A stretch of DNA of 63,998 nucleotides, the filler included, from Streblomastix strix (taxonomy: Eukaryota), in NCBI GenBank assembly GCA_008636045.1. It is 3 parts of 3 records of this genome, joined end to end, with 100 filler letters (N's around TTAATTAATTAA, not from the genome) between each part and the next. Parts side by side here need not be neighbours in the genome. Positions count along the whole stretch, not along the records: positions 1 to 21,307 come from SNRW01000379.1; 2 more parts are not named here. The stretch is one strand, 5' to 3'. Position 1 is the first letter of the stretch; each line of letters starts with the position of its first letter. A program made the translations under genes and the position numbers. Positions 1-42,802 of the stretch are shown here, piece after piece. The notes under the pieces were generated by a model, which searched no databases, was not told where the DNA came from, and worked only from the letters and a program-made list of their open reading frames with translations.

Positions 1-575
1 TTATTTTTACAAATTAATTTTTATAAATTTTTTTCAATTTTTTGTAAATTATTTTTATAAATTAATTTTTATAAATTTTTTTTTCCATTTTTTGTAAATT
101 ATTTTTACAAATTAATTTTTATAAATTTTTTTTCATTTTTTGTAAATTATTTTTACAAATTAATTTTTATAAAATTTTTTTTTCATTTTTTGTAAATTAT
201 TTTTAAAAAATATTTTTTTATAAAATTTTTCATTTTTTGTAAATTATTTTTACAAATTAATTTTTATAAAATTTTTCATTTTTTGTAAATTATTTTTACA
301 AATTAATTTTTATAAAATTATTTTCATTTTTTTGTAAATTATTTTTACAAATTAATTTTTATAAAATTATTTTCATTTTTTGTAAATTATTTTCACAAAT
401 TAATTTTTATAAAATTTTTTTTTCATTTTTTGTAAATTATTTTTACAAATTAATTTTTATAAATTTTTTTTTCATTTTTTGTAAATTATTTTTACAAATT
501 AATTTTTATAAAATTTTTTTCATTTTTTGTAAATTATTTTTACAAATTAATTTTTATAAATTTTTTTTCTTAAAT
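1..575. repeat. Subterminal tandem array of ~58-61 bp units at the left end of the Polinton-like element
   Basis: About 10 near-identical copies of CATTTTTTGTAAATTATTTTTACAAATTAATTTTTATAAA plus a variable T-run. Each unit carries a TTGTAAA-TTATT-TTTACAA hairpin. No spacers. Confidence 0.9.
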
Positions 576-729
576 TTTTTTATAATTATTTTTTATTTAA
601 TTTTTAATAAAATTAATTTTAATAAAAAATAATTATTATTTATTTTCATTTCTCAAAAAATAATTTTAATATTTGTGAAAGTCAGGTTCGAAACAACATC
701 AATTTGCAATTTTATACACAAATTTTACA

Positions 730-3700
730 ATGACTAGCTAATACAACAAATCGTAAATTATCGAATTAGGTAACCTTTTCGGGGAAGATTTATCAAATTT
801 AACTAACCCAAGAGGTCGAGATTATTTATTATAATTACTTAATCGTTACTAAGTGAATAAACCGCATGCATATTCTGCATCATTGATACAAAGAATTACA
901 TAAGCAGTTGAAATACACTAACGAAGATAATAACAATTAGAAAAATAACGATTAAAATAATTGAAAAGATAACGATTAGAATAATTGAAAATATAACGAA
1001 AATAACGTTTCGGAGAATAACTATAATTATTTTATGAAGGTCGTATTAATCACGAGAACTTAAAATAATTTATAACTCGTGATGAGTAAGATAATCAAGA
1101 TGAATAAAGAGAATTGGAAGAATATAAGCAAGAACAACGTGAAAGAGAACAATAAGACGAAATCTAGAAATAAAATGAAGATATATAATTAGATGTGTTA
1201 TTTGATCCATCATAAGAATAAATTGACTAAGAATGGGAAAATATTACTACCACAGGTAACTACGAGCCGTCAGGTACAGGAATTACTAAGTCCGAAAAAC
1301 TAAAAGAGAAAGATAACCTTGATTAAGATGATAATAATTTAGAAGAATATTTTGATTCTATTGATAGATAAGATTTTGATGGTGAAGTATGGCAAAAAGT
1401 TAGAAGGATGGAAGAAAATGAATAACAATATTAGTAAGAAAGATTTTAGAGAATACATGATGAATTCAATAATATTCCTGAAATTGAAGCAAAAACATTC
1501 AAACTACTTGATGAAGAGATTGCCGAGGATATTAGAAAATTAGAATATAAAAATTTCAGAGAAATTGATGTTGAAGATGCTGATGCATTATTATTATCAG
1601 AACCATTTAATTAAGCACTATTTCGACATGAAGTCTAGAAATTTCGTTAAAGATATTCAAGAGATTAAGTTGAAAGATCATATAACAAAAGATAATCTGA
1701 TAATTTTGAACCAACTCGTCATTACTATCACAATCATATTACAAGTTAAGGAGATATTGAAAATCATGTTAGAAGTGTTGGAACACAAGAATTATAAATG
1801 AATCATTTTAAAATTGCTTTTGATTTTGGATTTATAGTCGAAATAGTTACTTATAATGAAGATTAAGTATAAGAAGTTCGCTACGATGTAAGATATCCTC
1901 ATAACAATATCTTAAATGCATTAAATCCAGAATCAATAATAGATTCCTAAGAAAAATTAGAAACATATATTAAATTCTTACCTGCAAAAATAATTGAAAA
2001 TTAAGAAAGAACTCTCGAAGATACTCATACAAGATTCGTTGCTATTGTTTCAATGGTAGTAGTTGCATATCGTGACAGATCAGGAGGAGCAGCTCCAGCA
2101 GAATTATAAAAATTTATTAAAAGATAAGAAGTTAAATTCGTTGATAACTTGAATTATAGAAATAACTGTTTATTTGATGCATTATCATTTATATCATTAC
2201 CTGAAGAATCGTTGAAACGAATATCTAATACTGGTAGAGTTGCTGAAGGAAAACGATTAATGAAATAATTTTATTCTGCAATTGGTAATGAATCAATTAA
2301 GAATTTTGGAGAGTTTCTTTAAAATTATCAAGGATTTGATCTTGCATCTGAAGGTAAGTAACTTGCAAATATATTCAATATTAACATTTGTGTATATGCA
2401 TATCATCATTTAGATTTTGAATCACCTTAAGATGACAATTAGGAAATTAAAATTTAACCATAACCGAAGTTAAATTCAAAAGACAATCGTATTCATCGTA
2501 AAAAAGAAGATAGAATTAAAGAAGAAAAGTACGATAATTATTTTCTTGATTTTGTAATAAAACAGGAAACTAACGATTCTCTCATTAAAGACTCACCTAA
2601 AGATTTCAATATCTTACTTGTTCATTTCAGAAATAAGTTTCACATCTTATATATTTCTGATACGTAAGCATTAACAGGTTTAGCTTATTGTCCGATTTGT
2701 AAGTTACATGCAGTTAAAGTAAACGATTTCAATGGTAATTGGGTACGTGATTTAAAAAGACATATCGAATAATGTAAATAAAACAATGGTAAATAAGTTA
2801 TGTTATCAGGAAATTAAATACCTTTTGCACCACATATCACTGGTAATAAAACTTACGAATATTTCTGGTCTCGATAAGAATTATAAAAATTTAAACCAAC
2901 TAAGTATTATATCACTTATGATTTTGAAACTATGGAAGAATAAATTAATAAATATTTTGGTAAATCTATTGAGAATGATAATAATATATGCAAGATTGCT
3001 TCGCAACCTGAAGGCTAATGCCTGAACTCATTTCAGAATTCCGCATTAGTTCCATTATCAGTTGCATCAACAATTAAATCAAAGAAAGGAATTAAAACAA
3101 TATATTTCGATGTTAGATCTAATATTTATTTAACTATCGAATCTGGCGAAAAAATATTGAAGTAAAGTTTCATTGAATAATGGCTTGAAGCAATATTTGA
3201 AGAAGCTCTTTAAGTTAAGAAAGATAATGATTACGGTGATCCCGAAGTTCCATATGACATTGCTGTTCCGGTTTTAGGTTTCAATTCAGCACATTTCGAT
3301 ATGATTTTTGTCTTACCATATTTGACAAGTTCTAAGTGGCATATTACCAATTATCTTGGTGATTTCTCTCACATTAAACGAGTAGAAGTTCGTCATAAAA
3401 TTACCGGCGTGAGAATTTAATTCTTAGACGCTGAGATGTTCGTTACAAAAATGAAATTGAAAGATTTTGTCAAAGATTTCGGGGATAAATCCAACAAAAA
3501 AAGTGACAACAAAGGAATATTTCCTTACACTGCATTCAATACAACTAACTATGATGAAGTTTTAAAAATATCTGAGCCATTTGAATAAAATTAGTTTTTT
3601 AATGAATTATCTCAACAAAAACTATCAAATACAGATTACTTTGATTATTTACTCGATTAAATGATAATAATTGTTAATAATGATGGTAAAGTTAATGATA

Positions 3701-5988
3701 CAATAAAGAAATTTAATAATAGATGGGATTATTTACAATATTACAATGAACTTGACACAATTATCATGATAAAACCAATCGATAATCTAATTAAAATGAA
3801 TTTTGATAATGATCTTGATATGTTTAATTACTTATCTATGGCAAGCTGTGCAAATGGAACTAAATACAAAATGTGTTGTGATGATTTAGATCTTAAATCA
3901 AGGTATACAACGAAAGATGATCCAACATTAAAAGAATTCAATCCATTTGAGTTGACATAAGAACATTGGAATAAGAAAGTTGCAAGTTATAATATGTAAG
4001 ATATAAAAGCTGGAAGATAAATAAAAGATAACGTTAAAGAATCTGATTTCGAATATTTTCGAGAGTTGATTCACGGTGGTTAATGCTGGTTCTGTGAAGT
4101 TAGATTTACTAACAAAAATCCACCAACACTTGATAGAATCGATAATAATCTTGGTCATAGTAAAAATAATGTGTAATTAGCTTGTTCATGGTGTAATGTT
4201 AAAAGAGGAAATAGAGATCTTTTCATAACTAAAGGATTGATATAATTGAAAAGATATTATTTAGCAAAAGGTTTACCAATGCCATTGACAGATGAAGAAA
4301 CATATCATAAATTAAGACCAAATATTACAGGTGGATTAGCAAATTCATTTCATAGATATAATGTAAAAGATGAAACTCATATTAATAAACTAAAATTAGA
4401 AGGTTAATACGTCGTAAGTTATGATCTTGATTATGTAATGACACATGTTACTGGTTATGATTTTAATTCATTATATCCATCTGTTATGAGCGGAATTCCT
4501 CATGATTTTATTAAATATACTGGTCACAGAATTTATATGCCAGGTTATGAATTAGATAGAATTGAAAACGTTAGTGAATAATAAAAACAACTTTGTTTGA
4601 AAATTATAGATAATCCATTAAGATTCTCTAATAAATAATCCGAAATTGATAAAGTAACAATGTTCATAGCTGAAGTCAAAGGTCATATCGATTATAAATA
4701 TATTAACGATTATATTAATTGTCCGCCTATAATTAGAAAATATAAATATAAAACATTAGAATCTGTTATTGGTTAATTTATGCATTAGCATATGAAAAAT
4801 AATAATTTGAAAACTGATGGAGATGAAAATAAACTAACTGTTTTATTATCTACAATGGGAAAATATATGTGTTTCTATTCGTATTATCTTTGGTTACTTA
4901 TTGATGATTGTCATTTCATAATTGATGATGTAAAATGTGTTATGACATTTTCTAAACATATTGGTTTTGAATCATTTGTCAGGAAATTTATGTAATAACG
5001 AATATAATCTAAGATTGAAGGAAATTCCGGAGGAGAATAATTTAGTAAGATCACTATGAATTCATCTTATGGAAGTGATGGTATGAATCAAGAACATTTC
5101 ACAGATATTAAGTTATGTGATATACATGAAACATTCAGGAAACATCTCAATGGTAAATTCAAAAGTGATCGTAAATTAGGAGATAACTTATATGCTGTTG
5201 AGTTTGAATAATAAAAATTTAATTGTAAAACTTGCTTATAAGTTGCATTTGCAGTATTAGATTGTGCAAAATATTGGTTTATGAATTTCTATTATAATTT
5301 CTTAACTTCTATGATAGATATGAATCGAGTTCATCTCATTTATTGTGATACAGATTCTATGATGTTAGCAGTTGCTGGCGATCCTAAATAAAATTATAAA
5401 TAAGGATTCTCTGCTGTAATTAAAGATTAAAAATTCTATGATTAAAATTTCTATAAGTTCTTCCCAAAACCTAAATAAGTAATAACTTAAGAAAATAAAC
5501 CTTAACTTAGCAAAATTGTTGATGAAAGTTAAAGAAAACTTAAAATAAAAAAGTTACAAATATAAGATGAAAAGAAACCATTAGGAGTTGCGTATGAACA
5601 TTGTGGTTCAACACTTATAGCTTTAGCACCAAAGAATTATTGGTTAAAATAAGAATTTGATAAGAAAGATCCAATAGTTGTTAAACTTAAAGGAATGAGT
5701 TTAAAAATGAATCCTCAAATTAATAAAGATGCTTATGAAAACAATATTAAAAATGGAACTGTTGTAAAAGGTAAAAATACTTCGTTACGATAACATTAAG
5801 AAAGAAATAATGATGATGAAATATTTAGTAAGATGAGTAGAATTAATACTACTAAGAATGGAATTACTGGTGTTCATACAAAAATGATTGTATTAGAAAA
5901 TTAATGCTGTTGTCCATATATTGATGGAATAACTGCTGATAAATATAAAATTTAATATAAAATGTTGATGCCACCATAAAATAAATGA
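730..5988 (+). CDS. polB: Protein-primed family B DNA polymerase polyprotein (1752 aa): terminal protein, OTU-like domain, Zn finger, exonuclease, HNH insertion, polymerase
   Basis: Code 6 ORF. ExoI YITYDFET (~2910), ExoII GFNSAHFD (~3277), KGIFPY, ExoIII YYNELD, motif A GYDFNSLYPSVM (~4453), motif B KITMNSSYG (~5047), motif C YCDTDS (5341), APKNY. Confidence 0.96.
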
Positions 5989-6036
5989 TTGAAAACTTGC
6001 AATACATAATTTATTTTTAGTCCTTGAAAGCAACTT

Positions 6037-7365
6037 ATGTAACAAAATTTACGTATTCGTAAGAGTAAAACTCCAGCATAAATTCTTGATGATCTCTTAA
6101 AAAGATTTGATTAAAATGAGATATAGACTAGTATTGCAGAAGATTCCATGAAATTTTCAATAAATGAAATTTTAAAATAGCCCCGAAGATTAAATATAGA
6201 AGAATTTGTAAATAGAATCGAAATTCAGGACAATGATAATGAAATTTAAGTTATAATAGATAATGTCGATAAAATACAATACGGTGACAAATCAATTAAC
6301 GAATGGTATGAAGATTATCTTACGTAAGAGATGCAAAAAGGAAAGAAAAGATAAAATATTAGGTAAAATTTAAACATTTCTAATTAATAATTACCACAAC
6401 ATATAAATTTCCCATTCAAATCCAAAGTGAAAGCTTATGAAAAAGTTCATGGTATTAAATTAAAACAAAACAAAAAATCACCTATATTGAAAGTTCCTGA
6501 TTATTAAATTAAGTAACTTCCTGAATAATTTGGAAGACCATATTTCTCGTATCATATTGGCTCATGGGAAATTGATATTGTATTCTCAATGAATCCTGAG
6601 TTAGTACGGATCAATTAAATTTATTTATTCTGCATCAATATCAATACAAAATATCTTGTTGTCTATCCATTACATGATAAATCTTAAGAAGAAATTAGAA
6701 AAGCTTTATACAATTTAGTTCAACATCAGAATGTTACACATATTAGAGGTGATGGTGAAAAAGGATTTGCCAGTAATTATCTTATGTAATTTTATAAATC
6801 ATTTGATATAGAAACATATTTTGTAGATGGTTCAATTGAAATGACTAATCACAATCGTGTCGTTGATTCTGTTATAAGAACAATTAGAAATGCATTTGGA
6901 TTAGATGAGAGATAATTTGCAAGTCCAAATTTGATGTAATAAATGGTAGAAATCTATAATAATACTCCTCACAGTGCATTTGACAATTAATTTACACCAA
7001 GATAAGTTAATGGATAACAATAACTTGAAGCATATTTCATACGAAAAAATGATAAGAAACTAAGATAAATTAAAGCATAATAATAAATATCAGGATTACG
7101 TAAGTATTAACGAGGAAATATTATTATGATTCATGTCGATTATTCAAGAACAAGTCATCGTTTTATGAAATAAAGACGAAATTTCAATGAATTAGCAATG
7201 TTTTTAAGATATTCCAATGGTAATGTTGAATGTTTATTATTAAAACCATTTACTGATTTAGATAGAATTACAGTACCAATATATTATACTAAATTTGTCT
7301 GTGAAAATGAATAATAATTAAATTCACCAGAATTTAAATAATATAAATAAGTATTTAATTTATGA
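6037..7365 (+). CDS. Retroviral-like (rve) integrase, 442 aa
   Basis: GSWEIDIVF (D, 6574), HIRGDGEKGF (D, 6751), NRVVDSVIRTIR (D at the usual E position, 6865), YNNTPHS. Confidence 0.88.
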
Positions 7366-7426
7366 ATTTATTATAATAAACTTATTCATCTGTGAAAAGT
7401 TTATTTTTGAAATATTCCAAAAGGAA

Positions 7427-7840
7427 ATGGAAAAGGAATAAATTTAATAAATTGTGCTTGAAACATTGGCAGCAGTTAAAAATGTTCCAAAATAACCTAA
7501 AAAATAAAAATTGGTTAATTAGCCAGAAATAATTTCGGAAGAAACGATAAAATCGGTTACTCAAAGAGGACGATAATGTAAATACGAATCAAAAGAAGTA
7601 GCAATTGAAGTTGCAAAGAAATAAAGAAAAGTTTTAGCTGTAAAATATGCATAATAAAAATTAAATTTCAGAAAACAAGCTGATCCATCTTAACTACATT
7701 TAATAAAACGATTATCAACAATAGTAATTACAGATGATGCATAACTTTAAACAATGCATAAAATTCTAAATTAATTTGAGCCTGCTGTATTGGATAAACC
7801 TATAGAAAATTTATCCATAAATGAAGAAAAATAAGAATGA
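7427..7840 (+). CDS. Small basic hypothetical protein (137 aa), possibly DNA-binding
   Basis: Code 6 ORF from ATG to TGA; Lys/Gln-rich with an RGRQCKY segment. Confidence 0.7.
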
Positions 7841-7884
7841 ATACATTAAAAATAAATATGGAAATTATTTTTCTACCATTAGGC

Positions 7885-8961
7885 TCAAATTAGTTCTGAA
7901 ACATTAAACAAGAAATTATTTTACTTATCTTTTCCTGAAAGGATTGCGTTTTTAACTGCTTGAGCTATTTCAATGTCAATTTATGTAGGAGCTCTAATTA
8001 ATCTTCCACTTGGATCATACTCGAATAAACTATCGAAATATGCTTTTGCAGCATCATTTACTTATTTATATTTACCTGGATCATTTTTATCTAACTCTGA
8101 TAAATCGACTTAAGCGTATGTATTTGCAATTTCCGGAGTTAAGAAATTTGGCATCAACTTCTTAATAAAATGATCTCTCCAAATAACGCTTGGCAAAATT
8201 GTATAAGCATTTCTTTATTTATTATGAATATCTTCACCTACTTCTTAAACTTTTTGTATTCGATGTCCAAAACCTTTGAGAGTTTAAGCAACTAATTTCT
8301 TAAAGTAATTCCATGGAGAAACATATTTAGTTGGTCTAACATTAGCATCATACCAAGTTTTCATTGAAGTTCTTTTACGATCTTGTTTTGTTGGATTAGC
8401 TTCTTCATATAACATTGTTTAAAATCTCTTTTTAGGTGCTGTAGTACGATAACCAGCAATTGAATATACTTTTCCTTATTTATTTCTTACTATTGTATCA
8501 TTTGGAGTTGAAACATCATTATCATAATCTTCCGAAGTTACTGTCCATCCTTTCTGATCCAATTTCTTTTCTCTCAACCAATCTAAAGCACTTTATGGCT
8601 GAATAAGTCTATCAACTTTAGAAATATCTCTATGAAGTTTTCCTGCAACAATATATCCTAATTATGTCATTGCTTCATCTATATCAGTCTTTGGACCTAA
8701 ACCTTCTCCACGTTTTCTCGGAGGCTTATAATCAAGCTATTCATACGCAGGTAATTGAGAAATATTTATAGTTTTCCTTTTTGGTGCAGGTTTTAACATT
8801 CCAATATCATATGCATATTTCAATTTTTAATTATAAGCTTACATATCAAATGGTGTTTTAGTATCAACTTCAAATAAATTTTATGCAGGTTATTGGAATG
8901 GATTCTCATCCCATGGCATATCATCTGATGCTGGACCCCAATTTTATGTTGGTGCTGTCAT
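7885..8961 (-). CDS. Hypothetical element protein (358 aa)
   Basis: Uninterrupted code 6 ORF MTAPTQNWGPASDDMPW...SELI*; no motif recognised. Confidence 0.8.
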
Positions 8962-9067
8962 TGATAGTTTGCTAACTTTGTGTCAAAGTTAAAATCAAAA
9001 CAATGTTCAATAATTAAAAACGAAATGTCCAAATCCATTTTAGAATGGATGAAACAATTTATAACAC

Positions 9068-9748
9068 ATGGATGACTCTTTAGAGCGCGAACGTAGAGAG
9101 TAAAAATAATCTGTTTAATCTCTTCACTCTTTAGAGCGCTAACAGAGTTAGTAGAGTGCGAACGTAGCGAGTTCCGCGTGGACAAATACTAAATAAATAA
9201 ATGTGAGTTAAACTTTAAGGTCATCGTCTCCATCTCATATTGCTACACCAAGGGCAATTGCAGAAGTAAGTTCACCTTTTGAAAAGGAATCCTAGCCTAT
9301 TTAATCTTAACCTCGAAGACGATCTTCAATATTTGAAGAAACAATCACTCCAGATCCAACAGTTTGCAAATGGTTACTTGATATCATAAGCGAAGATGAA
9401 CATATGGCAAAAGAATCAGCACATTTTATTTTATCAGGGCCTTAATTAATAAGAGTTGTTGCATTTACTTACGAAGTTCCTGAAAGTTAAGTTGAAATAG
9501 CTGTTGAATAAGAAACTTGTTGTAATAAATTCTGTCATGATGGTACTGAAACTATTACTGATATTACAATTTCAAACGTTAATATCTTGACATTAGATGT
9601 TGATAAAGTTAATTTATTTAGAGATTCTTATAAAATATGTCTGTAAAAAGTTCGAAAAATATCGTCAATACTTGATTTAGGAGATATTTCATCAAAGATT
9701 ATGAGAGCTGTATCATCTGGATTAATGTAAGTTCTTTCAAAAGTTTGA
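9068..9748 (+). CDS. Conserved hypothetical element protein (226 aa)
   Basis: Code 6 ORF. A clear homolog lies at 21712-22255 (PDPTVCKWLLDII vs PDPSVC*WILDII), also directly upstream of a fibre gene. Confidence 0.8.
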
Positions 9749-9786
9749 GGCTGCGCATATATTAGCAAATTTATTTTTGTTAGAAA

Positions 9787-12690
9787 ATGGCTGACGGTGA
9801 TTTACATATGTTAGATGTTGTCTTGAAACATGATGAAATGTTATATGGATCAACTCGTTATAACATTATAGGTTTAGTTGAATAAGTTACGCATATCAAT
9901 AATTAAATCAATAATATATCTAATGGACCTGCTGGTGATACTTACTCAAGACCTTAGATTGATGAAATGTTGAATGAAAAAGCAGACAAATCAGACATAT
10001 TAGACACATATTCTAAGTAAGAAGCAGATGAAATGTTGAATGAAAAAGCTGATACCGACTATGTAGTTAACAATTTTGTTGGTAAGTCTGAATTAATTGA
10101 TTCTTACACCAAAAATGAAACAGATGCATTACTTGATGAAAAAGTTAATGAAGCAGTGCTTGATGATTACTATAGTAAAATAGAAACTTATGCTAAGATA
10201 GAAGTCTATAATAAAACAGAAGTTGAAGCGTTTCTTGATGAAAAGGCAGATATTGGTAATTCATATTCTAAATCTGAAGATGATGCGTTATTACTTGCAA
10301 AAGCTGATAAATCAACGACATACACAAAATCTGAAGATGATGCATTATTGTTATTGAAAGCTAATGTTGATGATGTATATGATAAAACTGAAACATTTAA
10401 TATGGTTGAATAAGGAAAGAAAGATGTAGGTATATTGATTGAAAATAAGGCTGACAGAACAGATTTAGATAACTATGTTGATCTATCATCTGCTCAAACA
10501 ATCAGTGGTGCTAAATAATTCGGAGTAATTTCTGCTACAACTATATCGAAACTAACTAAAAATGATGCATCAATATTATTAGCTGGTGGTGGTGATATGT
10601 TGGTAAGTAGTTTAGTTAATTAACCATAATTATAAGAGGTGAGAGATATTGCAACAGGTCGATCGAGAGGATACGTATTCAATACATTAGCAGAAATGAA
10701 TAATTGGATGGCAATTCCTGATAATGTAGCAAATTTAGTGATTGGTGATAATTTATATATAGTAGATTCACAAGTTACTGATTATTGGTGGGATGGAACA
10801 TAACTCAGAGAATTAGAAACATAATTACCTGATTTAACTAATGTTGTAACAACACTTGGTACTGCTACTGGTAATGGAAATGCTATAACAGATTTGTCAA
10901 TAACTGGTAATACAATCACTCCTGCAAAAAATATGACATTTGTTAATACTGATTATGATCAAAATATTAGTGGATCAAAGCTTTTTACAAGTACAATTCA
11001 TTCATATGGTATTAATTATTAAGGTTACGATAATTCATCTGTATTCCTTGCTGGAGGTGGAGTACGATCAATTGCAGATATACAAAGTAATTCATATTCT
11101 AAATCAGAAGATGACGCATTGTTGTTATTGAAAGCTGACAAAACATAATTGATTGATGCATATTCTAAAACAGAAACTAATAATCTCTTAAATAATAAGG
11201 CAGATACAGGTGTTTCATATTCTAAATCTGAAGATGATGCATTATTATTATTGAAAGCAGACAAAACTTAATTGATTGATGCATATTCTAAATCCGAAGA
11301 TGATGCGTTATTGTTACTGAAAGCTGATGTATTAACAACATATGATAAAACAAAAATAGATGAAATGATATAAAATAAAGTTGATAATTAAACATTAGTC
11401 AATTTAGTAAATACAACTGAAGATCAAATTGTTAATGGAAATAAGACATTTACTAGTAATATTAATGCTGTTGGATTCGCTAAAACTGGTAAAGATAATA
11501 CGTCAATTCTATTAGCTGGTGGAGGTGATATATTGCTATCGTCATTGTAAGCAGGTGATGTAGATCTATCAAACTACTATACGAAGACATAGGATGATGC
11601 TCTGCTTTTGTTGAAGGCTGATAAATCAACGACATACACTAAAACGGAAACTGATAATCTATTAGATGGAAAGTTAGATAATGGTTTTACATATTCAAAT
11701 GAAAAAATAGATGATATGATGACTTTCAAAGCTGATACAGACGCATTAGCTGATTATGTTACTTTAGGTACAGCATAGACAATAACAGCAAGTAAAACGT
11801 TCCAGAACAGTTGCAGATTCATTGGTACTATTAATGGAATGTCAACAGTAACTGGGACATCATTTATTAAATCAGGTGCTGATGATAGTGTTGTATTACT
11901 TGGAGCTGGTGGTACAAAACCAATATCTGAATTTGTTAGTGCACCACCAGATCTATCAAATTATGTAACTACAAATACAACTCAAACTATTTCAAGCGCC
12001 AAAACATTCAATGCAAACGTTACTGCTGCAGGATTCAAAAAAACAGATAGAGATGATACATCAGTTCTATTAGCTGGCGGTGGAGATATGGAAATAAGTG
12101 AAATATAAAGTGCAATTGATTTATCAAATTACTATACAAAAACATAAACATACTCAAAAACTGAAACAGATAATCTTTTAGATGATAAGATGGATTCAAG
12201 TGTATTAGATAATTTGGTGAATAAAATATAAGACTAAACAGTTGGAGGATACAAAACATTTGCTCTAAACGTTACTGCTGCTGGATTTGCAAAATCAGGT
12301 AAAGATGATACATCAGTTCTATTAGCAGGCGGTGGTGATATGTAATTGTCTTTATTTGGTGGTGCTGTTAACATTACAAACGTACTTTATGATAATCCAA
12401 CATATTTAAATACCCAAAACTTTACATTCTATGATGTATTATTCTATAAAATTGGTACTCTACACATATTTTCTGTATAAACGGCTCCTATTATTACTTT
12501 ATCTAATCCAAGTGTTGGAATAGTAATAATTCCTACGTAATACTAGCCAATAAATAACTATTAATTTTCAATCTCTGGTTATTAGAACAATATTATTAGT
12601 TCAAACTTCGAAAATAGCAATGTTAAAGTAAATATTGTTTAATGGTCAAATATGTAAATACTTCGAATTTCAGGTATGTGGGTTAAATGA
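9787..12690 (+). CDS. Long tail-fibre-like repeat protein (967 aa)
   Basis: Many YSKxEDDALLLLKADK repeats, about six QTIxGxKTF...SVLLAGGGD repeats, and a distinct beta-rich C-terminal domain. Confidence 0.8.
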
Positions 12691-12793
12691 AAATACCAAC
12701 TTTGTTGGCACCAACGGAGTTAGTACAATGTAATAATTTATTTTTGTTAGATCTCAAATCAAATCCCTACATTCTTCGTGAATTACTACATAA

Positions 12794-14374
12794 ATGACAG
12801 TATATATTGACAAAGCATTACTTGATGCAGCTGGATTAACGGATTTTCCCGAATTGTATGCATATATTAGAGAAAGAGATTCTTAACCTCCTGTTGGAGA
12901 AGCATCACCAGTTCCTATTGGCGAATAAACATTACAAAAATAAGTGAAAGATAATGATGATGCACTCGCTGGACCAATTGATCCGGTACAACCACCAACT
13001 ATAGAAGCTATGCATTATGAGACATTTGGTTTTATACTATTAACTCCGGGGTTATAGTTATATGATTCTTCATAAAGTACTTTTCGATTTGCTGTATAAG
13101 GTAATAAAGTCACGTTTAATCTTGGATTGAAAACAGCAACAACATTTAAAGGATATATCATGGGTGGATTTCCATACAGATTAGTTCCAACTAAACGAGA
13201 AAAACCAAGTATTATTGTTGGACATGATTGCGATCGTGGATATCATCTATAATGTTTTATAGACGATTAAGGACCATATATTTCAACATGGAGTGATGAT
13301 GCTATTCCATAAAACGTTCATATTGCATTGTCAGGAACATATTATATCGATTATGAATTGTATAAAAGAGCCACAACAGATGTAAATAATGACGGCTAAA
13401 ATGATATCATGGATGATTGGCATTAGAACTCACAAGTTGCTGAAAGATAGACAGAATCATGGGTATATGATGTCGTAAAGCAACAAACCGATTAAATTGC
13501 ATCTGGTGGTGCATAACCAGCATCAAAAACTATAAGTAATTACTTAAATAATAACACAAAATTACGAAGTCCATATCAATAATTTACGGACGATCGCGCA
13601 GCATATTTTGTTAAAGAAGGACCACAATGTACATTTAACTTCAGAACTAGAAAAATTACTCCAGCAGGAAACATTAATGTAATATTTGGAACAATTGATA
13701 AATAATTAAAAACACCATTGGATACATGGTTTCCAGTACATTCAACTATATCAGGATAATTTGTAAGTTTTGAATTAAATCAAGAGAATAAAGTAATTTT
13801 CAATTCTAATTCAGGTCTTTCGGTAGATATAGATTTTGCTGGAACGTATATTATTGCACCATAGACAGATAATGATAACTCAAATGGATTACCATCAGCT
13901 CCAGAAGAACCTGATTCGCATATAGATAAAGTGATAATTGATCAAGATACAATATTACGAGGAGGAATACCACCACCTATATCATAATATACAATTAAAA
14001 ATCGTTTTGATGATATATTACTTACTGTTTCATATATTGATACAATTGATAGAGTAAATAATTAGTTCTATGAAATATTCGATGGAGTAAATAAATACGT
14101 TGTATTCAATGTTCATCTATCAATATACAGTTTCAATGAAAAATTTATATAAATTGGTTCTTTACCAACAGATTTATTATCAGATTTTCCTGTATATTTC
14201 CCTCTCACTTGTTTGTATGAAAAAGAGAAATACTAAACAAGACCACCTGCAGGATACACCGCTATTGGCACTGAAACTAACAAATAACGATGGTATATAT
14301 ATCTATCAGATCCTCCAGTTCTTTCATAAATGATACATTACTATACTAGTGGAAGTTATTATCTTCCAGCTTGA
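12794..14374 (+). CDS. Putative fibre/receptor-binding protein with three tandem beta-rich domains (526 aa)
   Basis: Three repeats ending in SGTYYI, AGTYII and SGSYYL, separated by Pro/acidic linkers; they resemble the C-terminal domain of the upstream fibre. Confidence 0.65.
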
Positions 14375-14508
14375 TATCAATATAGTTGATGAGATACTCA
14401 CAAAGTGAGCGCTCTAAAGAGATACATATAATGATGAGGTAAGTTAAAAGCAATTAACAACAAAAGTTAGTATTTTTGTTAAACCGAAACAAGAATACTA
14501 TTAAAAAG

Positions 14509-14832
14509 ATGGCTGTCGGGATATTCTCAAAAATCAAAACTCTTGCGTAAAAAATTGGACACGGATTATAATGGGTGAATGATAAAATTGTTAAACCTTA
14601 TGTGATTCCAGCTGCAAACTTAATTGCACCAGCTCTTGGACCAGCCGGTGGAATGATTACTAAAGGAATTAGCTTAGGATCATCTACAATTGATGCATTT
14701 GGAGGTAAAGGATCAAAATAAAAAGTAAAAGAAAATTTTAATGATTTTCGTAACGATACATTTGTTAAGTAGAACTTACCTATTGAATCATTGAGTAGAA
14801 GGATAAAACTAATCGGATAAGAGAATAAGTGA
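14509..14832 (+). CDS. Small protein with an N-terminal amphipathic helix (107 aa); candidate membrane-penetration or core protein
   Basis: MAVGIFSKIKTLAQKIGHGLQWVNDKIVKP followed by a Gly/Ala/Pro-rich segment; lies directly before the capsid gene. Confidence 0.65.
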
Positions 14833-14887
14833 GCATCTGTAATCAAATTGTAATTAATCGATTATTTTTGTTGTTTCACAAATTAGC

Positions 14888-16600
14888 ATGAATCGTTTTC
14901 TATCAAAAGCCATATAAGTGCAATCGTTGAACACAATTGAAGGAGTATTGGAATCAAATGCCGTTACGCCGTTCAAAAATGATGGTGAACATCATTATTC
15001 AATTAAGGAGATTAAACCGGAAAGTTAGATGCCAGCATTATTTGATAAAGAAATTATGATAAGTTTATCAGACAGTGATCATGATATTACTCAGATATAG
15101 AATTCATTCTTATCCATAGTGATGACTGCAAATCTATTGTTTGATAACAAGTTTGAGGAATTTGATGAATCTTACAAAGATGGAGTTGTATTATTTGTAG
15201 GATTGAAGTCAGGAAGTAATATAATTCGTGAATATACAGTTTATCATCGTGGTAGAACAATTGATGGAAGCTTATAGAATGATGCAACAACTGAATCATT
15301 CATCTACAATACAATTAAACCAAAGTCTGAGAAAAATAATAGAAAACATATCCATTCATTGTATGATAACATCCATAAATTTGATACTTCAGCATGTGGA
15401 ACTTATATTACAATGAGAGAGATTGAAGAAGCAATTGCAGATTAAGGTAATGTTCCTTACAAAATGCCTGTAAGATTCAGAATATCTGTTCCATTAGATG
15501 ATTTACTTATATTCTCAGCTTTTACAGATTATCCCAATGGAATTTTTGGAGATCTTAAGATTAAATTCAAGATAAATCCAAATGCTTTCGTATTTGCGTA
15601 AGTTAATCCAACAATATCTCTTGCAAAATATTATACAATGAATAAAGATGAATTACTGAGTTCTGGATAATAAAAATTGATGGATATTGATCTATTCTTT
15701 AGAAATTGGAGCTTAACATTCTAATATACAAATCAATTTACATAGCTTGGATGTACAGCTGATTTAATAACTGGGATTAATGTAAAAAATTTAACAGAAT
15801 CAGGATTGAAAAATTTGATTTGTAATATTAATCCAGTAACAATTTCAATGATGAATTATGTTGTAACTGAAGTTACTGCAAATATGGCTGGATATAAAGC
15901 AACTGATGAATGTCTTGCAAGAGTAAGAGCATTTTATGCAACTCGTCCATTTGTAGTTCCGGCTTAAAGAGTTGAAATATGGCCATTCCCAACTAGTGCA
16001 ACACTTACTGGAATAAGAACTTCTTAAAATATTCCATTATCTCATGTTACTGATTTCTGTCTTCTATTTCCAAAAGATGCTAGAGCAACAACTTGCTTTG
16101 AAAATCCATGTTATTAAAATATGTAATTGACAACTTGTGGAAGAAACTTCCCAGATATGCCTATGAATACTACTGATTAATAATTCTTCCAATTATAATT
16201 GAATGCAAGTAATTTAGATCTGTTATTTGAAGCAACTGATGAATTTGAAGATGCATTGACAACTCCAAGAAATACTGCAACAAGAAGACTTAATCCTCAT
16301 ACTGATCTAACTTCTTTCATGATTACTTTATAATGCGAGCGTAATTCTAACGGTGCATTAACTTTTGATGGTCTTGATACAAAGAACCAAAATACTTCTG
16401 TTGAATTAAGAGGTGCTCCAATTTATCAAGGTGTTACAGATTCGTACTTTAACGTAGATACAAGTGGAAAAAGACCTCCACCTCCAATTCTGTGTACAGT
16501 TCATGATACATTCTGGCTATTTAGTCCTAATCAAGGAGGTTCATGTATTTATGATACAACTCATTCATTTGATGAGGTAATTGGAAGTGTTACTGGATGA
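14888..16600 (+). CDS. Putative double jelly-roll major capsid protein (570 aa)
   Basis: Size, beta-strand-rich pattern (FVGLKSGSNIIREYTVYHRG, FRISVPL, LKIKFKI) and position in the structural module. Fold inferred, not searched. Confidence 0.75.
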
Positions 16601-16661
16601 AAAAAATCGAAAAATATTATGAATTTTACTTATTTTTGCTATTAACGAAATAATCCTTATA

Positions 16662-17105
16662 ATGTCTTATGTACCTTCGGCAATGATTGTTGCGGAAAAT
16701 AAAAAGCATTTTATTATAACTCGTGAACAAACTTAAGTGGAATAGCATTCATTCCAAAGAAGATTACCAACAGATTTCGTGAATTCATAGAATGAAAGAA
16801 AAATAACATTTGTTTAATGTATAATACCTTGGAAAGTTAAGAAATATTTCTATGATTTGAAATTATAAAATGATCCTGACACAACACCAATTGAGCATAT
16901 AAAGATATCATTTCATTCTACGCTTGTACAAGAAGAGTAATATAATGATTATTATGTTGGAATGTGTGATGAATAAAGAACTTAAAAAGTATTTCAATAA
17001 ATGAATCGTCGACCTATGATCTACTTTTGGTTTAAGGATTAAGATGGAAATGAATTTGTTATTACTCATATGGAATTTATAATTGAATTGGAGCTAGAAT
17101 TTTGA
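16662..17105 (+). CDS. Putative minor capsid (penton, single jelly-roll) protein (147 aa)
   Basis: Follows the MCP; C-terminus IYFWFKDQDGNEF...FIIELELEF fits the Polinton penton pattern. Confidence 0.6.
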
Positions 17106-17205
17106 GCCTACCAACGTCGGCGCCAAATCGTTAACGATTCGGAAGAATTTTGGAGAATAAGTTATTTTTCATTGAAAGAAACATTGCGACACATTGTGAC
17201 TCAAT

Positions 17206-17604
17206 ATGACTCGAGTTATCTTTGATAATCGTGCTGGAAGCCGCACTCGTACTCCATTAAAGTCATCTGTTGAAACCGTTCCAGATGTATATATCATGGA
17301 AAAATTTAATCCAGATCCAATAGTTTTTGAAAATGTGAACGAGTTTAAGTAATATCTAGCATTAAATAAGGAAGAAATAGAGAAATTATCAACACTTAAG
17401 TTGAATATGTAATATAAAATAAAAGGTGGTTATAGAATCACCAGATTGAAAGGTAAGATATCATTGAGATTATGGCCTAAAGAATAAAAACTGGAAAAAT
17501 AATCTGAAACTATTGAGTAGATGTAGAATATTGATTAAAGATTGGAAAATTTAATAAATACATTGTTGAGTAAAAATATTATATCAGAAGAAGATTTGAT
17601 GTGA
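17206..17604 (+). CDS. Hypothetical element protein (132 aa)
   Basis: Code 6 ORF with TLKLNMQYKIKGGYRITRLKG and a C-terminal coiled coil. Confidence 0.75.
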
Positions 17605-17606
17605 AA

Positions 17607-18383
17607 TCATGATACGATTTCTATCGTAGTTCCATCTTCATTATACTTAACCAATAATGCTTCTCTTTTTGGAAGTTATACATATTATTGCCAAAGATCT
17701 TCTTTATCAATTGGAATTGATGATTAATAAAAGAATAAATTGAATTTTTACCTATTAAATGCACCGAAGAAATATATTGAATCAACATTTGATTTAATTG
17801 CTGCATCAAGCCCAATAATATCTTGCAAACAAAGAAAATAAGTAATTCTTGGTTATCTATTTTTGAATAATTTCTTGAAAAGAGGGCTCATTTTATTTTT
17901 GAAAATTGACATTGCATCATCGAATAAAACAATAGTGTGTGGCGATTTAATTTTGAAATCTTATGCACCAACAGTTTCAAGAATTTCTTTTCGAGACGTT
18001 TCATCTAATTTATCATCAATATGTTAATCAATTACTTAATCATAGGCTTGCTTACATTCTATCAAATCATCTAATGTAGCATCTGCTTATGAATATGTTA
18101 CTATTTTTGTTGTTATTTTCATCAAATGTTTCATTTTCTTATAAATTTAGTCATTATTAGTATCAGTAACGTAGATAAATAAAGTATAGCTATGATTCTT
18201 TAGTTAACTTAACTTAATTATTTCTTTAAAGACGTTATAAGTTTTCCCACTACTACGTTATCCAATGAGAAGATTAATGGAGTTATATGTGAAATTGATT
18301 TCAGGATGAATTATAGATTAAGTATCATGTCTATTTTCATTAATATTTTCTAAAAGTGAGTTCACATGCTTAGTTAATGACAT
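17607..18383 (-). CDS. A32/FtsK-family genome-packaging ATPase (258 aa)
   Basis: Walker A LLIGQRSSGKT, Walker B HTIVLFDDA, then KNRQPRITYFLCLQ...AIKSNV. Confidence 0.9.
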
Positions 18384-18619
18384 TTCAATGTAAAATTCTT
18401 ATTGTTGAAGCACTTTGCTACTACTTTAAAGATCAAATGAATGTAAAAAATAGCTTAGTAATTCCAAAACGAATAATCTAATGAAATTAATTATTTTTAT
18501 CAGAAATGCGAAACATTTATAAAAAGTTTTTTTCAGAATTTTATTTTTTTAAAAAAATTTCACTCAAGAACTTTTTTAATTGAAAATTCATTTTAATTTT
18601 CTTCGAAAGACAACAAAAA

Positions 18620-19351
18620 ATGAAATCATCAACTTCAGATCTATCTTATACAAATAAATTTGCTAGCAATTCCATTGCCGGTCTAAAGACTATTACTTTT
18701 ATCGATAATGTTATAAAAATTAAATAAATCAATTTAGCCTATAGAAATTACATACTTTCCCGTGAAAATCTAGATGAATTAAATAAATTGATATAGACGA
18801 CTGACGTAATGAAAATTAGTATTCAAAATCTAGAATAAATTAATAAAAGAGCAACGTATCTAAGTAAAAGGGCAAATGATTATGGATATGATTATGATAA
18901 TGAATACTCAGAAAAATGTTTTAGTATTTATAACGTTATCGATCTAAATATATAACGTACAAAATTTATTTTATAAAAATTCTTAAAAATTTCTGATTCT
19001 TAAATTAAAATAATATTTGACAACAACAAAGACAAAACAATGTATTAATTGTTAACTATCTATAATGTTCCAAATGAATTGAATGAAATTAAAGGTGATT
19101 AAGATGGTTTTTACTATGAAAATGATAAATCTATCTTAGTACCAAATGATTATGCTGTTCCTAATAAAATACCTAATAAAATCTAAGATGTTGCCATAAA
19201 TCCTAATCCAAATGAACACTCACAACAGTTTCGGTATTAAATGTTAAATGATCCATTAGATAATTAAGAATTTGAATTTTAAGAAGATGAAGATGATTCT
19301 GAAGCAGATATTGATTAATATTATTCAGAAGAAGATGAATCTGATAATTGA
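18620..19351 (+). CDS. Hypothetical protein with acidic tail (243 aa)
   Basis: Code 6 ORF from ATG to TGA; last gene before the putative right terminus. Confidence 0.7.
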
Positions 19352-19464
19352 AAATCTTAGTTTCAACATTATTTTTGCTAATTTATTAGGCAATTAACAC
19401 AAAAATTTGCAGAAAACACAAGAATTCCAACAAATTTGTACTGATACCCCCCCTTTACCATCAA

Positions 19465-19597
19465 ATGCAAAGTTTTGAAATTTTGATGTCTGAGGACATG
19501 CAAAGTTTTGAAATTTTGATGTCTGAGAAATTTATGAAAGTTCATTTTTAATGCCTGAGATATGCAAAGTTTTGAATTTTTGATATCTGTGGAATTT
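19465..19597. repeat. Four ~30-36 bp direct repeats, probably subterminal repeats of the adjacent hAT-like element
   Basis: ATGCAAAGTTTTGAAATTTTGATGTCTGAG repeated with variation. Confidence 0.7.
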
Positions 19598-19848
19598 ATG
19601 GCACAATGGATTTGGAATGGAATCGAAATTTTTTAGCTCTTTTTTGAAGGAATTTGCAATAAACATGGGCGAATTAACCGATTTATATTTCAAAAGCTTC
19701 AAAATCGATGATTTACATCAAAAACATGGGAAATTTAAACTCAGCTCAGCGCCCGTGTTATCTATATAATTTTTGGTAAAAATCGGGCCATTTTGGCAAG
19801 CTTAGGCCATCATAATTTTCAACTATATAATTTGATTTGTAATTTAAA

Positions 19849-21307
19849 ATGAATCATTTTTTAATTTATGATTACCCAGGCCAAAGCCTTCCTTAAATAT
19901 CAGACGTTTAATAAAAAATTAATGAAAATAGACAAAAAGAATAAATGAGTTTGAACTACATTATTATTTATTAAAAAATATTATAAATCGTTTTAATAAT
20001 AATTTTAAAGTTTCTGCAACAGATACACCAGCATAATCGTTGCATTCGTTATAAACAAAAGATTCTACACCAGTGAATACTGCGAGTTTTTCATCAACTA
20101 ATTTAAACGCATCGTATAATGACTCTATTATTAACTATTAAACATTGGATGGAGATTAATTTGAAGGAAAGCCACATCCAAAAAAATTTCATAAAATGAA
20201 AGATTGCTTAATAATAAAATTTAGAAAGACAAATTTTACGATTCTGTAATAGAAATTAATAAATGAATATAAGACACATTCAAGAACACATTTGATGTGT
20301 TTATAATAAGAAGGGAACTTAAGATGTAACTTCGACAAAAGAAAAGGATGGATTTATTCATAAAAAAATAAAGAAAAGGTACCAAAAAATTTTGATGAAT
20401 AATTGGCAATAAAAGAAGAAGGAATAAAAGAAAAATATCTTATATTTTACCATAAATGCCGTTTCACAATTCCAATTGCTAATATAGCGTCTCCAACAGA
20501 AAATGAATTGAGAATTTTAATTGCACGATGTTTGATTTAAATGCGCACATCATATTCTTCTTCATCTATTCTCTTTAATGCATTTCATTCAGCAATGCAA
20601 TATTAATCTGATCATAATGATAAAACACCAGAATAAAACTTAAAAAATTTGGATGTAAAAGAAACTTCTGTGTTAATTATTGAAGTAGCTAGAATAATTT
20701 AATAGTAATAAATTCGTGCATTAAGGGGTTGTAGAGTAACCGTCTCTTTAGATTCAGCAACAATTCATACACATCATCTCATTGCTGTAATAATATCAAA
20801 TATCAACGATAATAATTTCCATCCAATTCTTTTTGCACTTGATAATTCTGGGACTTCAAAAGATGCAATTATGAATTTAGCAGCACGAATTATTGAAGAT
20901 TTGCATCATTTAGGGATCAGACCCGTTGCTTTCGTAACGGATGGTCTCCAAAGGCAGGTCGACGCTCTAAGTTTAGAATCTGAAATTAACTATTCTTAAT
21001 TATTAAATCAATACTTGATTGAAAATCCTAGCAGAATACAAAATCAAAAATAAATCCAATAAAAATCAGTCTCATCGATTTCATTCAGTCCAATGTTACA
21101 TAAAATATAATAGTAAAGACTTTAAAAAGGTCAATAACCATAATAGGAGTCTACTATTTTTGAATCAAAATCGAACTAAGATTATTTAACAACACCAGTA
21201 AGATAAGAACATCATATAAATAATAGTTTAATGTAAAAATCTCCAGAATCTTCTATAATTTAACAGCAACAATAACAACTTGAAGAGAATATTAAATAAT
21301 AATAAGA
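19849..21307 (+). CDS. hAT-like DDE transposase, 3' end truncated by the contig end; intron 19949-20010
   Basis: VTVSLDSATIH (first D) and PVAFVTDGLQRQ (second D). Removing the GTTTGA...AAAG intron joins the ATG exon in frame. Confidence 0.65.
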
Positions 21308-21407
21308 NNNNNNNNNNNNNNNNNNNNNNNNNNNNNNNNNNNNNNNNNNNNTTAATTAATTAANNNNNNNNNNNNNNNNNNNNNNNNNNNNNNNNNNNNN
21401 NNNNNNN
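21308..21407. other. Artificial contig linker
   Basis: N-run, TTAATTAATTAA, N-run. Confidence 0.97.
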
Positions 21408-39939: not shown

Positions 39940-42702
39940 TCACCATTACCATGAATTTTAACTTTGGTTAAACTCTTTCCAGTTAGTACTCCCACTTCTT
40001 TCAGGCAATGTATGAATCGGCACTTAATTCTAAGTGCTTAAATTTGGTGTTTGATACATCGGAATATGACCTTGGAAGAAATTTTACATTGTCTATTAAG
40101 GAGGATTTATTGATGGATATTCTATTGGATGTTGGTATAAGTTTGGAAGAAACTAATATCCTGTTTGAGGTGTTTGCTGCTATTTGATTTATATTTTATT
40201 TTACATTATAGGTGTAAATTCAGCTGCAGAAGCTGATAGAGTAGAAGTTTCAGGTTGAGAACCAAAGAAAGACCTTGATTATTAGATTTATTAATATCCT
40301 TAATTCTATATTATTGGTTTACTTGAAAAAAGAGGTTCATTAATATTGGTATGAATATTTGCTTATGAAGGTGTTGGAGCTGTTAGTTAAGATTTTGTAG
40401 AAATGAAACCATTTGTAGATGAATTTTGAGAAATGATTGAATTTGTTTTATTATTTTTTCTTGTTTCAATATTTAATTATTCATTTATTTTATTATTTTA
40501 TGTCCAAATAGGTTCAGATAGTGAAATATCATTTACTATAATATTATTATTTAATTCATTAGTTAAATTATTTGAAAAAGAGTCTGTATATGAATTAAGA
40601 GATTAAATATTTTGATCATTGAAATCAATTCCGAGAATTTGATCTAATTCAAGTCTTTCTGGAAGAGAAGGGAAATGATCATCTTCAGTGATAATATTAT
40701 CACCAACTACATTTTATTTAAGGAAATCAGATTGTTAATTTTATATATATTTAAAATTTTATTCAAATAATTTATTATTATTAAGATTATTATTAGTAGT
40801 AGCAGAAAGATTATTATTATTAGTAGAAAGATTATTTTTATTATTAGAAAGATTATTTTTATTATTATTATTATTATTAGTAGTAGTAGAAAGATTATTA
40901 TTATTAGTTGAAAGATTATTATTATTAGTAGAAAGGTTATTATTATTAGTTGAAAGATTATTTTTATTAGTAGAAAGGTTATTATTATTATTAGAAAGAT
41001 TATTATAATAAGCAGTAGAAAGATTATTATTATTATTAGAAAGATTATTTTTATTAGTAGAAAGATTATTTTTATTAGTAGAAAGATTATTATAATTAGT
41101 AGAAAGATTATTTTTATTAGTAGAAAGATTATTATAATTAGTAGAAAGATTATTTTTATTAGTAGAAATATTATTATAATTAGTAGTAGTTGAAAGATTA
41201 TAATTATTAGTTGAAAGATTGTAATTATTAGTAGAAAGATTATTATTATTATTAGAAAGATTATTTTTATTAGTAGAAAGGTTATTATAATTAGTAGAAA
41301 TATTATTATAATTAGTAGTAGAAAGATTATTATTATTAGTAGAAAGATTATTATTATTAGTAGAAAGATTATTATTATTAGTAGAAAGATTATTATTATT
41401 ATTAGAAAGATTATTATAATAAGCAGTAGAAAGATTATTATTATTATTAGAAAGATTATTTTTATTAGTAGAAAGGTTATTATAATTAGTAGAAAGATTA
41501 TTTTTATTAGTAGAAAGATTATTATTATTTGTTGAAAGATTATTATTTTTATTAGTAAAAATGTTATTATTATTATTTGTTGAAAGATTATTATTAGTAG
41601 TAGAAAGGTTATTATAATTAGTAGAAATATTATTATAATTAGTAGTAGTTGAAAGATTATTATTATTAATAGAAAGATTATTATTATTAGTAGTAGTTAA
41701 AAGATTATTATTATTAGTAGTAGAAAGATTATTATTATTAGTTGAAAGATTATTTTTATTAGTAGAAATATTATTATAATTAGTAGTAGTTGAAAGATTA
41801 TTATTATTAATAGAAAGATTATTATTATTAGTAGTAGTAGAAAGATTATTATTAGTAGTAGTAGTAGAAAGATTATTATTATTTGTTGAAAGATTATTAT
41901 TAGTAGTAGTAGTAGAAAGATTATTATTAGTAGTAGTAGTAGAAAGATTATTATTATTAGTAGTAGTAGAAAGATTATTATTAGTAGTAGTAGTAGAAAG
42001 ATTATTATTAGTAGTAGTAGTAGAAAGATTATTATTAGTAATAGTAGAAAGATTATTATTATTAGTAGTAGTAGAAAGATTATTATTATTAGTAGTAGTA
42101 GAAAGATTATTATTATTAGTAGTAGAAATATTATTATTATTAGGAGTAGAAAGATTATTATTAGTAGTAGAAAGATTATTATTATTAGTTGAAAGATTAT
42201 TATTATTATTAATCATTTAAATTTATTTCTGTTCTGTTAAATGAGATAATTACTTTACAATTTCTATCTTTTTTATATTTATTCTCTTTGATTGAACTAT
42301 CATATCTTCATCATCTTCCACATTATCATCATTCTAATTTTATTCTTATTCTTGATTTTTTAAATGTGAATGTAAAATAATTTATTTCTTTTTCTTTTTC
42401 TTTTTTAAAAATTTCACAGAATTCAATTTTCTTTTTACTTCAAATCTTATTTTCTTTTCTGAAAATGGGTAAGGTTATTAATTTAAATTTATTAACTTTA
42501 TTTCATTTTCAATTAAAGTCTTATTGAGCAGTTTATCTTCATTAATTTAATATTTTGATATTTCTGATTTTTATTTCTCTAATTTTAACATTCTTTCTTT
42601 GCTCAATAATAATTCTTCTTCAACAATTTTTATTTCAGCTTACTTATTTATTATATTTTGATTATCTATTAAATGTTTTTGTTATCTTTGAAGTTGATTT
42701 AT
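39940..42702 (-). CDS. Host low-complexity protein, 5' truncated, with an Asn-rich repeat block and a PAM2-like motif
   Basis: The 485-aa ORF-track frame continues in both directions in code 6. STLSASAAEFTP at ~40210-40245. Confidence 0.7.
40770..42213 (-). repeat. Coding minisatellite encoding NNNNLST(T)n
   Basis: Dozens of 21-30 bp units (AGAAAGATTATTATTATTAGT on +), varying by whole triplets. Confidence 0.92.
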
Positions 42703-42802
42703 NNNNNNNNNNNNNNNNNNNNNNNNNNNNNNNNNNNNNNNNNNNNTTAATTAATTAANNNNNNNNNNNNNNNNNNNNNNNNNNNNNNNNNNNNNNNNNN
42801 NN
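42703..42802. other. Artificial contig linker
   Basis: N-run, TTAATTAATTAA, N-run. Confidence 0.97.

Follow-up and report, generated by a model that had tools for sequence, protein, structure and literature searches.

The window analysed here is a stretch of 63,998 nucleotides from Streblomastix strix, and the element with which we are concerned lies on its first contig (SNRW01000379.1), which we treated as running from position 1, the contig start, to 21307, the first N standing at 21308. A contig of 21,307 nt is on record with exactly the major capsid protein encoded here. The two identical filler blocks at 21308-21407 and 42703-42802, each of the form N44, 12-mer, N44, are most likely joins between separate contigs; they divide the window into segments of 21307, 21295 and 21196 nt, and context across them carries no real linkage. 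Within 730-19351 lie 13 intronless, closely packed open reading frames (ORFs), with a coding density of 94.7%, that are open only under translation table 6, in which TAA and TAG (TAR) are read as glutamine. A preliminary description of this DNA had proposed a virus of the Polinton/Maverick type that has genes for replication, integration, packaging and the capsid, and a DNA polymerase of family B that is primed by protein (pPolB), an RVE integrase, an A32 packaging ATPase and a double jelly-roll (DJR) major capsid protein (MCP) were indeed identified; that the element is a Polinton/Maverick virus of the Metamonada group we regard as practically certain. An integrase scan returned 80 metagenome loci, to which the locus counts given below refer. 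The features of the contig are as follows.

1-614, no strand: AT-rich tandem array of a 48-bp unit, 11.8 copies in 1-569, at the contig start
730-5988, plus strand: ORF1, pPolB with an endonuclease VII/HNH insert (PHROG DNA polymerase, E=1.8e-10; endonuclease VII, E=1.6e-11)
6037-7365, plus strand: ORF2, RVE integrase, 442 aa, triad D180-D239-D277 (Pfam rve in the family; retroviral integrase, E=0.047)
7427-7840, plus strand: ORF3, small basic protein, 137 aa from its likely start; no homologue found
7885-8961, minus strand: ORF4, conserved family gene, 358 aa (jackhmmer: 21 ORFs among 549 locus ORFs; 19 of 80 loci)
9068-9748, plus strand: ORF5, likely conserved family gene, 226 aa, with a Cys-containing C-terminal half (locus profile)
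9787-12690, plus strand: ORF6, repeat-rich fibre-like protein, 967 aa (PHROG 5004, E=1e-12; tail fibre PHROG 10305, E=1e-6; internal repeats)
12794-14374, plus strand: ORF7, 526 aa, no assignment (no Pfam, PHROG or PDB match)
14509-14832, plus strand: ORF8, 107 aa, with an amphipathic helix at its N terminus (hydrophobic moment 0.51, top 1.5% of 18-mers)
14888-16600, plus strand: ORF9, DJR MCP, 570 aa (near-identity to published confirmed MCPs)
16662-17105, plus strand: ORF10, predicted minimal single jelly-roll (SJR) minor capsid protein or penton, 147 aa (model pLDDT 77.5)
17206-17604, plus strand: ORF11, conserved family gene, 132 aa (20 of 80 loci)
17607-18383, minus strand: ORF12, A32/FtsK-type genome-packaging ATPase, 258 aa (motifs and STIV B204 profile match)
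18620-19351, plus strand: ORF13, 243 aa, acidic tail; no homologue found
19439-19442, minus strand: tentative right terminus; the minus strand here reads AGTA, like the ends of relatives
19465-19593, no strand: 33-bp tandem repeat, four copies, just outside or inside the right end
20196-21296, plus strand: transposase-like table-6 ORF that runs off the contig (weak PF21787, E=0.0037)

All 13 ORFs terminate in TGA, a codon absent from the interior of every one of them. Read with table 11, they stay free of stops for 130 aa at most, and the longest frame, of 1752 aa, compares with a maximum of 572 aa in 100 shuffles. TAA and TAG make up 305 of the 378 glutamine codons (TAA 271, TAG 34, CAA 63 and CAG 10, with ORF3 taken from 7427 and ORF8 from 14509) and 266 of 371 in five host-type ORFs elsewhere in the window. 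Re-annotation with table 6 confirms the set of 13 intronless, TGA-terminated frames in the TAR = Gln code that had been described; in GenBank these genes are already annotated with the correct code, as hypothetical proteins. TAR codons of the MCP gene fall mostly opposite glutamine in distant homologues (Q 424, next residue 91), codon 286 facing 76 Q and 2 N; for the integrase the same comparison was weak (K 164, E 134, Q 128). Enrichment for glutamine was considered as a further sign of recoding and rejected, there being none in the MCPs (5.1% versus 4.6%), though it is present in the integrases, where entries named S. strix mostly have 6-12% glutamine and unnamed entries mostly 2-7%. G+C content is even along the element at 23-31%, and the MCP (570 aa) and integrase (442 aa) are equal in length to their closest full-length homologues, so that neither has an evident lesion. 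Since a standard-code cell would cut every gene to at most 130 aa, the S. strix sublineage needs a code-6 host. This is a clean case of a genetic-code barrier: with TAA or TAG codons in every gene, the element would fail on leaving code-6 hosts, whereas such hosts could in principle still read the genes of standard-code relatives.

ORF1 is a protein-primed family B polymerase by its PHROG match and its conserved catalytic residues, the exonuclease, zinc-site and polymerase residues being kept in all relatives that cover them, except at the unconserved position 1141. Ahead of the exonuclease, Cys480 and His638 stand in a context that fits the vOTU domain of polinton pPolBs, in which a terminal protein-vOTU-exonuclease-palm layout and homing-endonuclease inserts have been described (10.1101/2024.03.18.585575), and to judge from motif and position a vOTU protease domain inside pPolB is likely. 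His638 is kept in both of the two relatives that cover it, and the Cys motif was spotted by eye in locus L009. We note that pPolB of L009 (1801-6664) is split into two ORFs inside the putative vOTU domain, the half with the Cys motif closing one ORF and the His half opening the next some 50 nt downstream, and that in L010 (1-3582) the frame is stopped and restarts at another ATG in the corresponding place.

The Pfam rve domain is found in 15 of 41 members of the integrase family, the window protein itself not being among them, and PDB sequence searches with pPolB and the integrase gave nothing meaningful. The third catalytic residue of retroviral-type integrases is glutamate, whereas that of the window integrase is aspartate. 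Residues D180, D239 and D277 are present in 114, 117 and 114 of the 120 homologues listed, and in 73/76, 75/78 and 74/77 of the loci covering each column; the D-D-D triad, which had been remarked upon earlier, is therefore a family trait and not a lesion.

The assignment of ORF9 is carried by its near-identity to proteins already confirmed as MCPs. It is 94.9% identical over 570 aa to KAA6402169.1 (P0428) and 90.8% identical to KAA6397366.1 (P0001), which are confirmed MCPs in the tabulated cluster MMPC_40 of Bellas et al. (2023), within the Metamonada group; the same cluster has Trichomonas, Tritrichomonas and Entamoeba rows. By this sequence comparison ORF9 is a DJR MCP, as had been proposed for 14888-16600, its own low-confidence model being by itself suggestive. 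In a PDB search with that model all 28 of the rows shown are DJR proteins (best E=1.6e-3), and a VIA ranking places ASFV p72, a poxvirus scaffold and the faustovirus MCP on top at Z 5.4-6.2 (best Z 6.2, rmsd 5.5, 183 aligned), the alignments covering the N-terminal half only. A BFVD search with the poor model returned capsid and unrelated matches mixed, a PDB sequence search with the MCP profile gave nothing meaningful, and none of the 44 MCP-family proteins scanned matched Pfam DUF4106, which is the T. vaginalis MCP according to Bellas et al. (2023, PMC10120064). Their Table S3 lists one family member that matched the Sputnik MCP (Foldseek E=2.6e-12).

Directly downstream, ORF10 is predicted from its model to be a minimal penton. 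The top seven of 48,161 chains compared with the model are capsid proteins of DJR viruses (Z 6.3-9.9), among them EhV-201 8rbt_S (Z 9.9, rmsd 4.1, 127 aligned) and the mavirus penton (Z 7.2, rmsd 4.5, 130 aligned); the mavirus entry is the only one of the seven titled penton, and the other six we take to be pentons as well. Foldseek gave weak jelly-roll matches only and a PDB sequence search with the penton profile nothing meaningful. In relatives, homologues of 111-114 aa lie directly downstream of the MCP gene. Neither this candidate nor the likely vOTU domain had been singled out in the preliminary description, which had proposed two fibre genes instead of one. ORF6 is fibre-like on its PHROG matches, while ORF7 has no supporting match and a weak repeat signal: pairwise repeat tests for a second, three-headed fibre ranked at 12-482 of 500 shuffles (best 12/500), leaving that proposal unsupported, and no ORF7 homologue was found in the 80 loci.

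ORF8 is a candidate membrane-active core protein comparable to protein VI of adenoviruses (PMC11071296), its N-terminal motif being the basis for the comparison; its profile found no match to protein VI in the PDB. Eighteen small ORFs that start like ORF8 occur in 11 loci and adjoin the MCP gene in the loci mapped, these ORF8-type genes having been assigned by N-terminal pattern and position. No maturation protease was recognised in the 13 ORFs by Pfam, PHROG or motif, in agreement with the earlier remark that a standalone adenain was not seen, and no adenain-like gene was found among the 13 ORFs of L048; the negative covers the recognisable standalone adenain/Ulp1 type in the DNA from position 1 onwards, with ORFs 3, 4, 5, 7, 11 and 13 searched by sequence only. 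ORF12 has a conserved Walker A (G41-K47), Walker B (D155/D156), R176 and Q187, and its profile matches STIV B204 packaging ATPases (E=1.4e-6 and 8.3e-6). A profile of 15 locus ORFs matches ORF5 alone among the 13, weakly (E=1.1e-4), and a Pfam scan of the 13 ORFs gave nothing above the cut-off. At the end of the next contig (21410-22167, minus strand) lies a decayed second copy of ORF5 and the start of ORF6; it is 66% identical in nucleotides, and TGA stops interrupt the frame of its ORF5 portion.

Sequence searches with ORF9 returned 178 matches, of which the best 120 listed are all named Streblomastix strix, and a profile search gave 549 representatives. Comparison with 170 MCPs of the S. 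strix cluster put the nearest at 95% identity; 23 of the 170 are full length, with identities of 66-91%. In a midpoint-rooted FastTree phylogeny of 67 sequences, for which 12 of the 23 full-length S. strix MCPs, 49 distant representatives and five locus MCPs were taken, the 13 S. strix MCPs form one clade with support of 1.0; this is consistent with prolonged diversification, under selection, within a single host lineage. Relatives farther afield use the standard code, since their integrase matches are nearly without TAR codons (67 of the 80 loci have none; overall 19 TAR versus 935 CAA or CAG). Five loci (L037, L043, L047, L048 and L060) have all nine shared genes, namely pPolB, the D-D-D integrase, the ATPase, the MCP, the penton, ORF4, ORF5, an ORF8-type gene and ORF11. 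They also have a gene in the fibre position after the penton and AGTA termini; they differ from the window element in their standard code, their gene order, two ORF8-type genes and a penton of 111 aa, and no homologues of ORF3, ORF7 or ORF13 were found in them. Confinement to code-6 hosts, as first proposed, thus holds for the S. strix sublineage and not for the family, whose standard-code members share the nine genes and the D-D-D triad. Across relatives the genes for the MCP, the penton and the ATPase and those of the ORF8 type have been retained, with identities of about 25-45%. The deep MCP alignment proved too diverse to scan the loci with, and no relative was found in a phage collection. 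We note that L011 and L020 (23-24% G+C) have a D-D-D-type integrase and an ORF11 homologue without an MCP of this family; L011 has a different candidate capsid gene of 650 aa, which suggests module exchange.

Fourteen of the 80 loci have a terminus starting with AGTA against unrelated flanks, with sharp element-host junctions, and the relatives therefore integrate. In the window the AGTA site at 19442 is no better than chance (two sites in 19352-20195, with 5.3 expected), and the 48-bp array at the left could belong to the element, as subterminal DNA, or to the host. The transposase-like ORF at 20196-21296, which matches three locus ORFs (E 3e-4 to 9e-4), is the only host-type flank and the sole sign of integration on the same contig. 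Genes for a RasGAP, a DEAD helicase and an FHA protein, tried as host flanks, were ruled out because they lie past the contig joins. No tRNA genes were found in the window. The element is very probably integrated in the nuclear genome.

We conclude with good confidence that the contig carries a nearly complete, open-frame copy of a Metamonada-group Polinton/Maverick of S. strix or a very close relative, written in the host code, likely integrated and likely able, or recently able, to replicate itself and build particles. From Polinton biology, pPolB would prime from its N-terminal terminal-protein region and copy a linear genome, with the vOTU domain probably setting the terminal protein free; AGT-type ends would be linked to host DNA by the D-D-D RVE integrase. 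The capsid would consist of MCP trimers together with the ORF6 fibre and the small penton, DNA would be packaged by the A32 ATPase, and ORF8 would breach membranes with no maturation protease involved. The host's reading of TAR as glutamine may have let the AT-rich genes drift to TAA, so that expression would now be blocked in standard-code cells. That the window copy or its close kin can still form particles is, in our estimate, an even chance.

Several observations weigh against this reading. The true left end lies outside the window, position 1 being a contig end inside the 48-bp array; no inverted repeat joins the two ends beyond AT-rich words of 13-19 nt, no target-site duplication is visible (the left junction is not on the contig), and the flank on the same contig is only about 1.9 kb. 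The intactness first claimed thus stands for the ORFs, which are open with no lesion evident, and not for the ends: with the left side cut off by the contig boundary and neither terminal inverted repeat nor target-site duplication seen, completeness is not proven. The ORF9 model has a pLDDT of 42, no PDB match to it reached E<=0.001, and its N-terminal jelly roll alone aligned. These points apart, it is conceivable, if unlikely, that the same type of element is here a dormant or dead insertion, or one spread as a transposon only, its frames open from youth or intragenomic copying and no particles being made. No MCP copy above 95% identity was found among the 170 S. strix-cluster proteins, so that a near-identical sibling is missing and the recent activity first proposed is not shown; many MCP homologues are short or partial, the next contig has the decayed copy interrupted by in-frame TGA, and three IMG/VR queries (alignments of the integrase and of the S. 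strix MCPs, and the L048 MCP) returned no relative. The Maverick genes of T. vaginalis are, moreover, mostly silent in RNA-seq data (PMC7845603). The missing sibling, the IMG/VR negatives and this silence count against the main reading as well. Against a dead copy stand 13 frames all open over 18.6 kb, and transposon-only spread would not require the MCP, penton, ATPase and ORF8-type genes to be kept at the identities given above.

A chimeric assembly of several divergent copies is very improbable. The family is high in copy number and the source fragmented, and nearest identity varies by gene (MCP 95%; integrase 75% at full length and 91% over a partial match), but there are no frame breaks, G+C is even, the core genes are exactly single-copy and the MCP and penton genes adjoin as in relatives. 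Most improbable is a free, extrachromosomal virus genome that was assembled along with the host's. The contig is almost all element, with classifiable host genes on other contigs and no target-site duplication seen, but it continues into the table-6 transposase-like ORF, the junctions between element and host are sharp in relatives, and Bellas et al. (2023, PMC10120064) count 820 MCPs in S. strix.

Elsewhere in the window, a table-6 primase-like ORF at 44215-46886 overlaps out of frame with an SF3 helicase ORF (DUF5906, E=7e-20) and is likely a relic of another mobile element or virus. The ORF at 48096-48929 has no Pfam match, and its start presumably resembles the methyltransferase domain of DIRS-type retrotransposons. 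A long array with a 21-nt period at 40654-42200 encodes on its minus strand an Asn/Thr-rich repeat within a frame of 1036 aa. The gene at 50733-60253 is an intron-split DEAD/DEAH helicase gene (Pfam DEAD, E=6e-24), which we take to resemble the Brr2/ASCC3 subfamily.

The element is not an undescribed one: the family and its code match were already published in 2023, in an account that defines the Metamonada group by parabasalid, S. strix and amoebozoan MCPs and reports table-6 use in the S. strix elements (Bellas et al., 2023, PMC10120064). The window element shares the MCP family, host lineage and table-6 usage of those elements; the S. strix sections of that account treat the MCP, without a gene map, penton, integrase triad or protease status. 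In the literature searched, with few subscription papers and with the original 2006-2007 Polinton/Maverick papers outside the search, we found no description of the nine-gene core, the family-wide D-D-D triad, the penton of 111-147 aa, the lack of a recognisable maturation protease or an oxymonad gene map. The Mavericks of T. vaginalis and Tritrichomonas share the MCP cluster, at about 30% identity to S. strix MCPs (Table S5), and like the window element have polB, c-integrase and ATPase genes (PMC7845603); they differ in their standard code and in reaching up to 30 kb with 20 genes including KilA-N, which was not recognised in the window element. Animal group 1 Polintons, Mavericks and adintoviruses (Polintoviricetes) share with it pPolB, the RVE integrase, the A32 ATPase, the DJR MCP and the SJR penton, while most group 1 members are described as carrying an adenain-like cysteine protease (10.64898/2026.06.19.733378), of which none was recognised in the window element. 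The same report leaves the trichomonad and Metamonada elements ungrouped and requests more genomes, and T. vaginalis MCPs are placed outside the Maverick clade in another (10.64898/2026.10.13.758929). What remains new is an annotated, near-complete genome and gene map for this unplaced lineage, with a predicted very small penton and a D-D-D integrase. Together with the standard-code relatives the window copy offers a usable gene map and a penton candidate for Metamonada Polintons, and the D-D-D integrase is a marker by which the family can be retrieved from metagenomes. We suggest, tentatively and on a footing somewhat short of even, that the Metamonada elements are a distinct Polinton lineage marked by the nine-gene core, the D-D-D triad, a penton among the smallest (111-147 aa), an amphipathic N-terminal peptide that is exposed from the start, and protease-free virion maturation, of which the S. 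strix copy would be a still competent member, locked to code-6 cells by host recoding.

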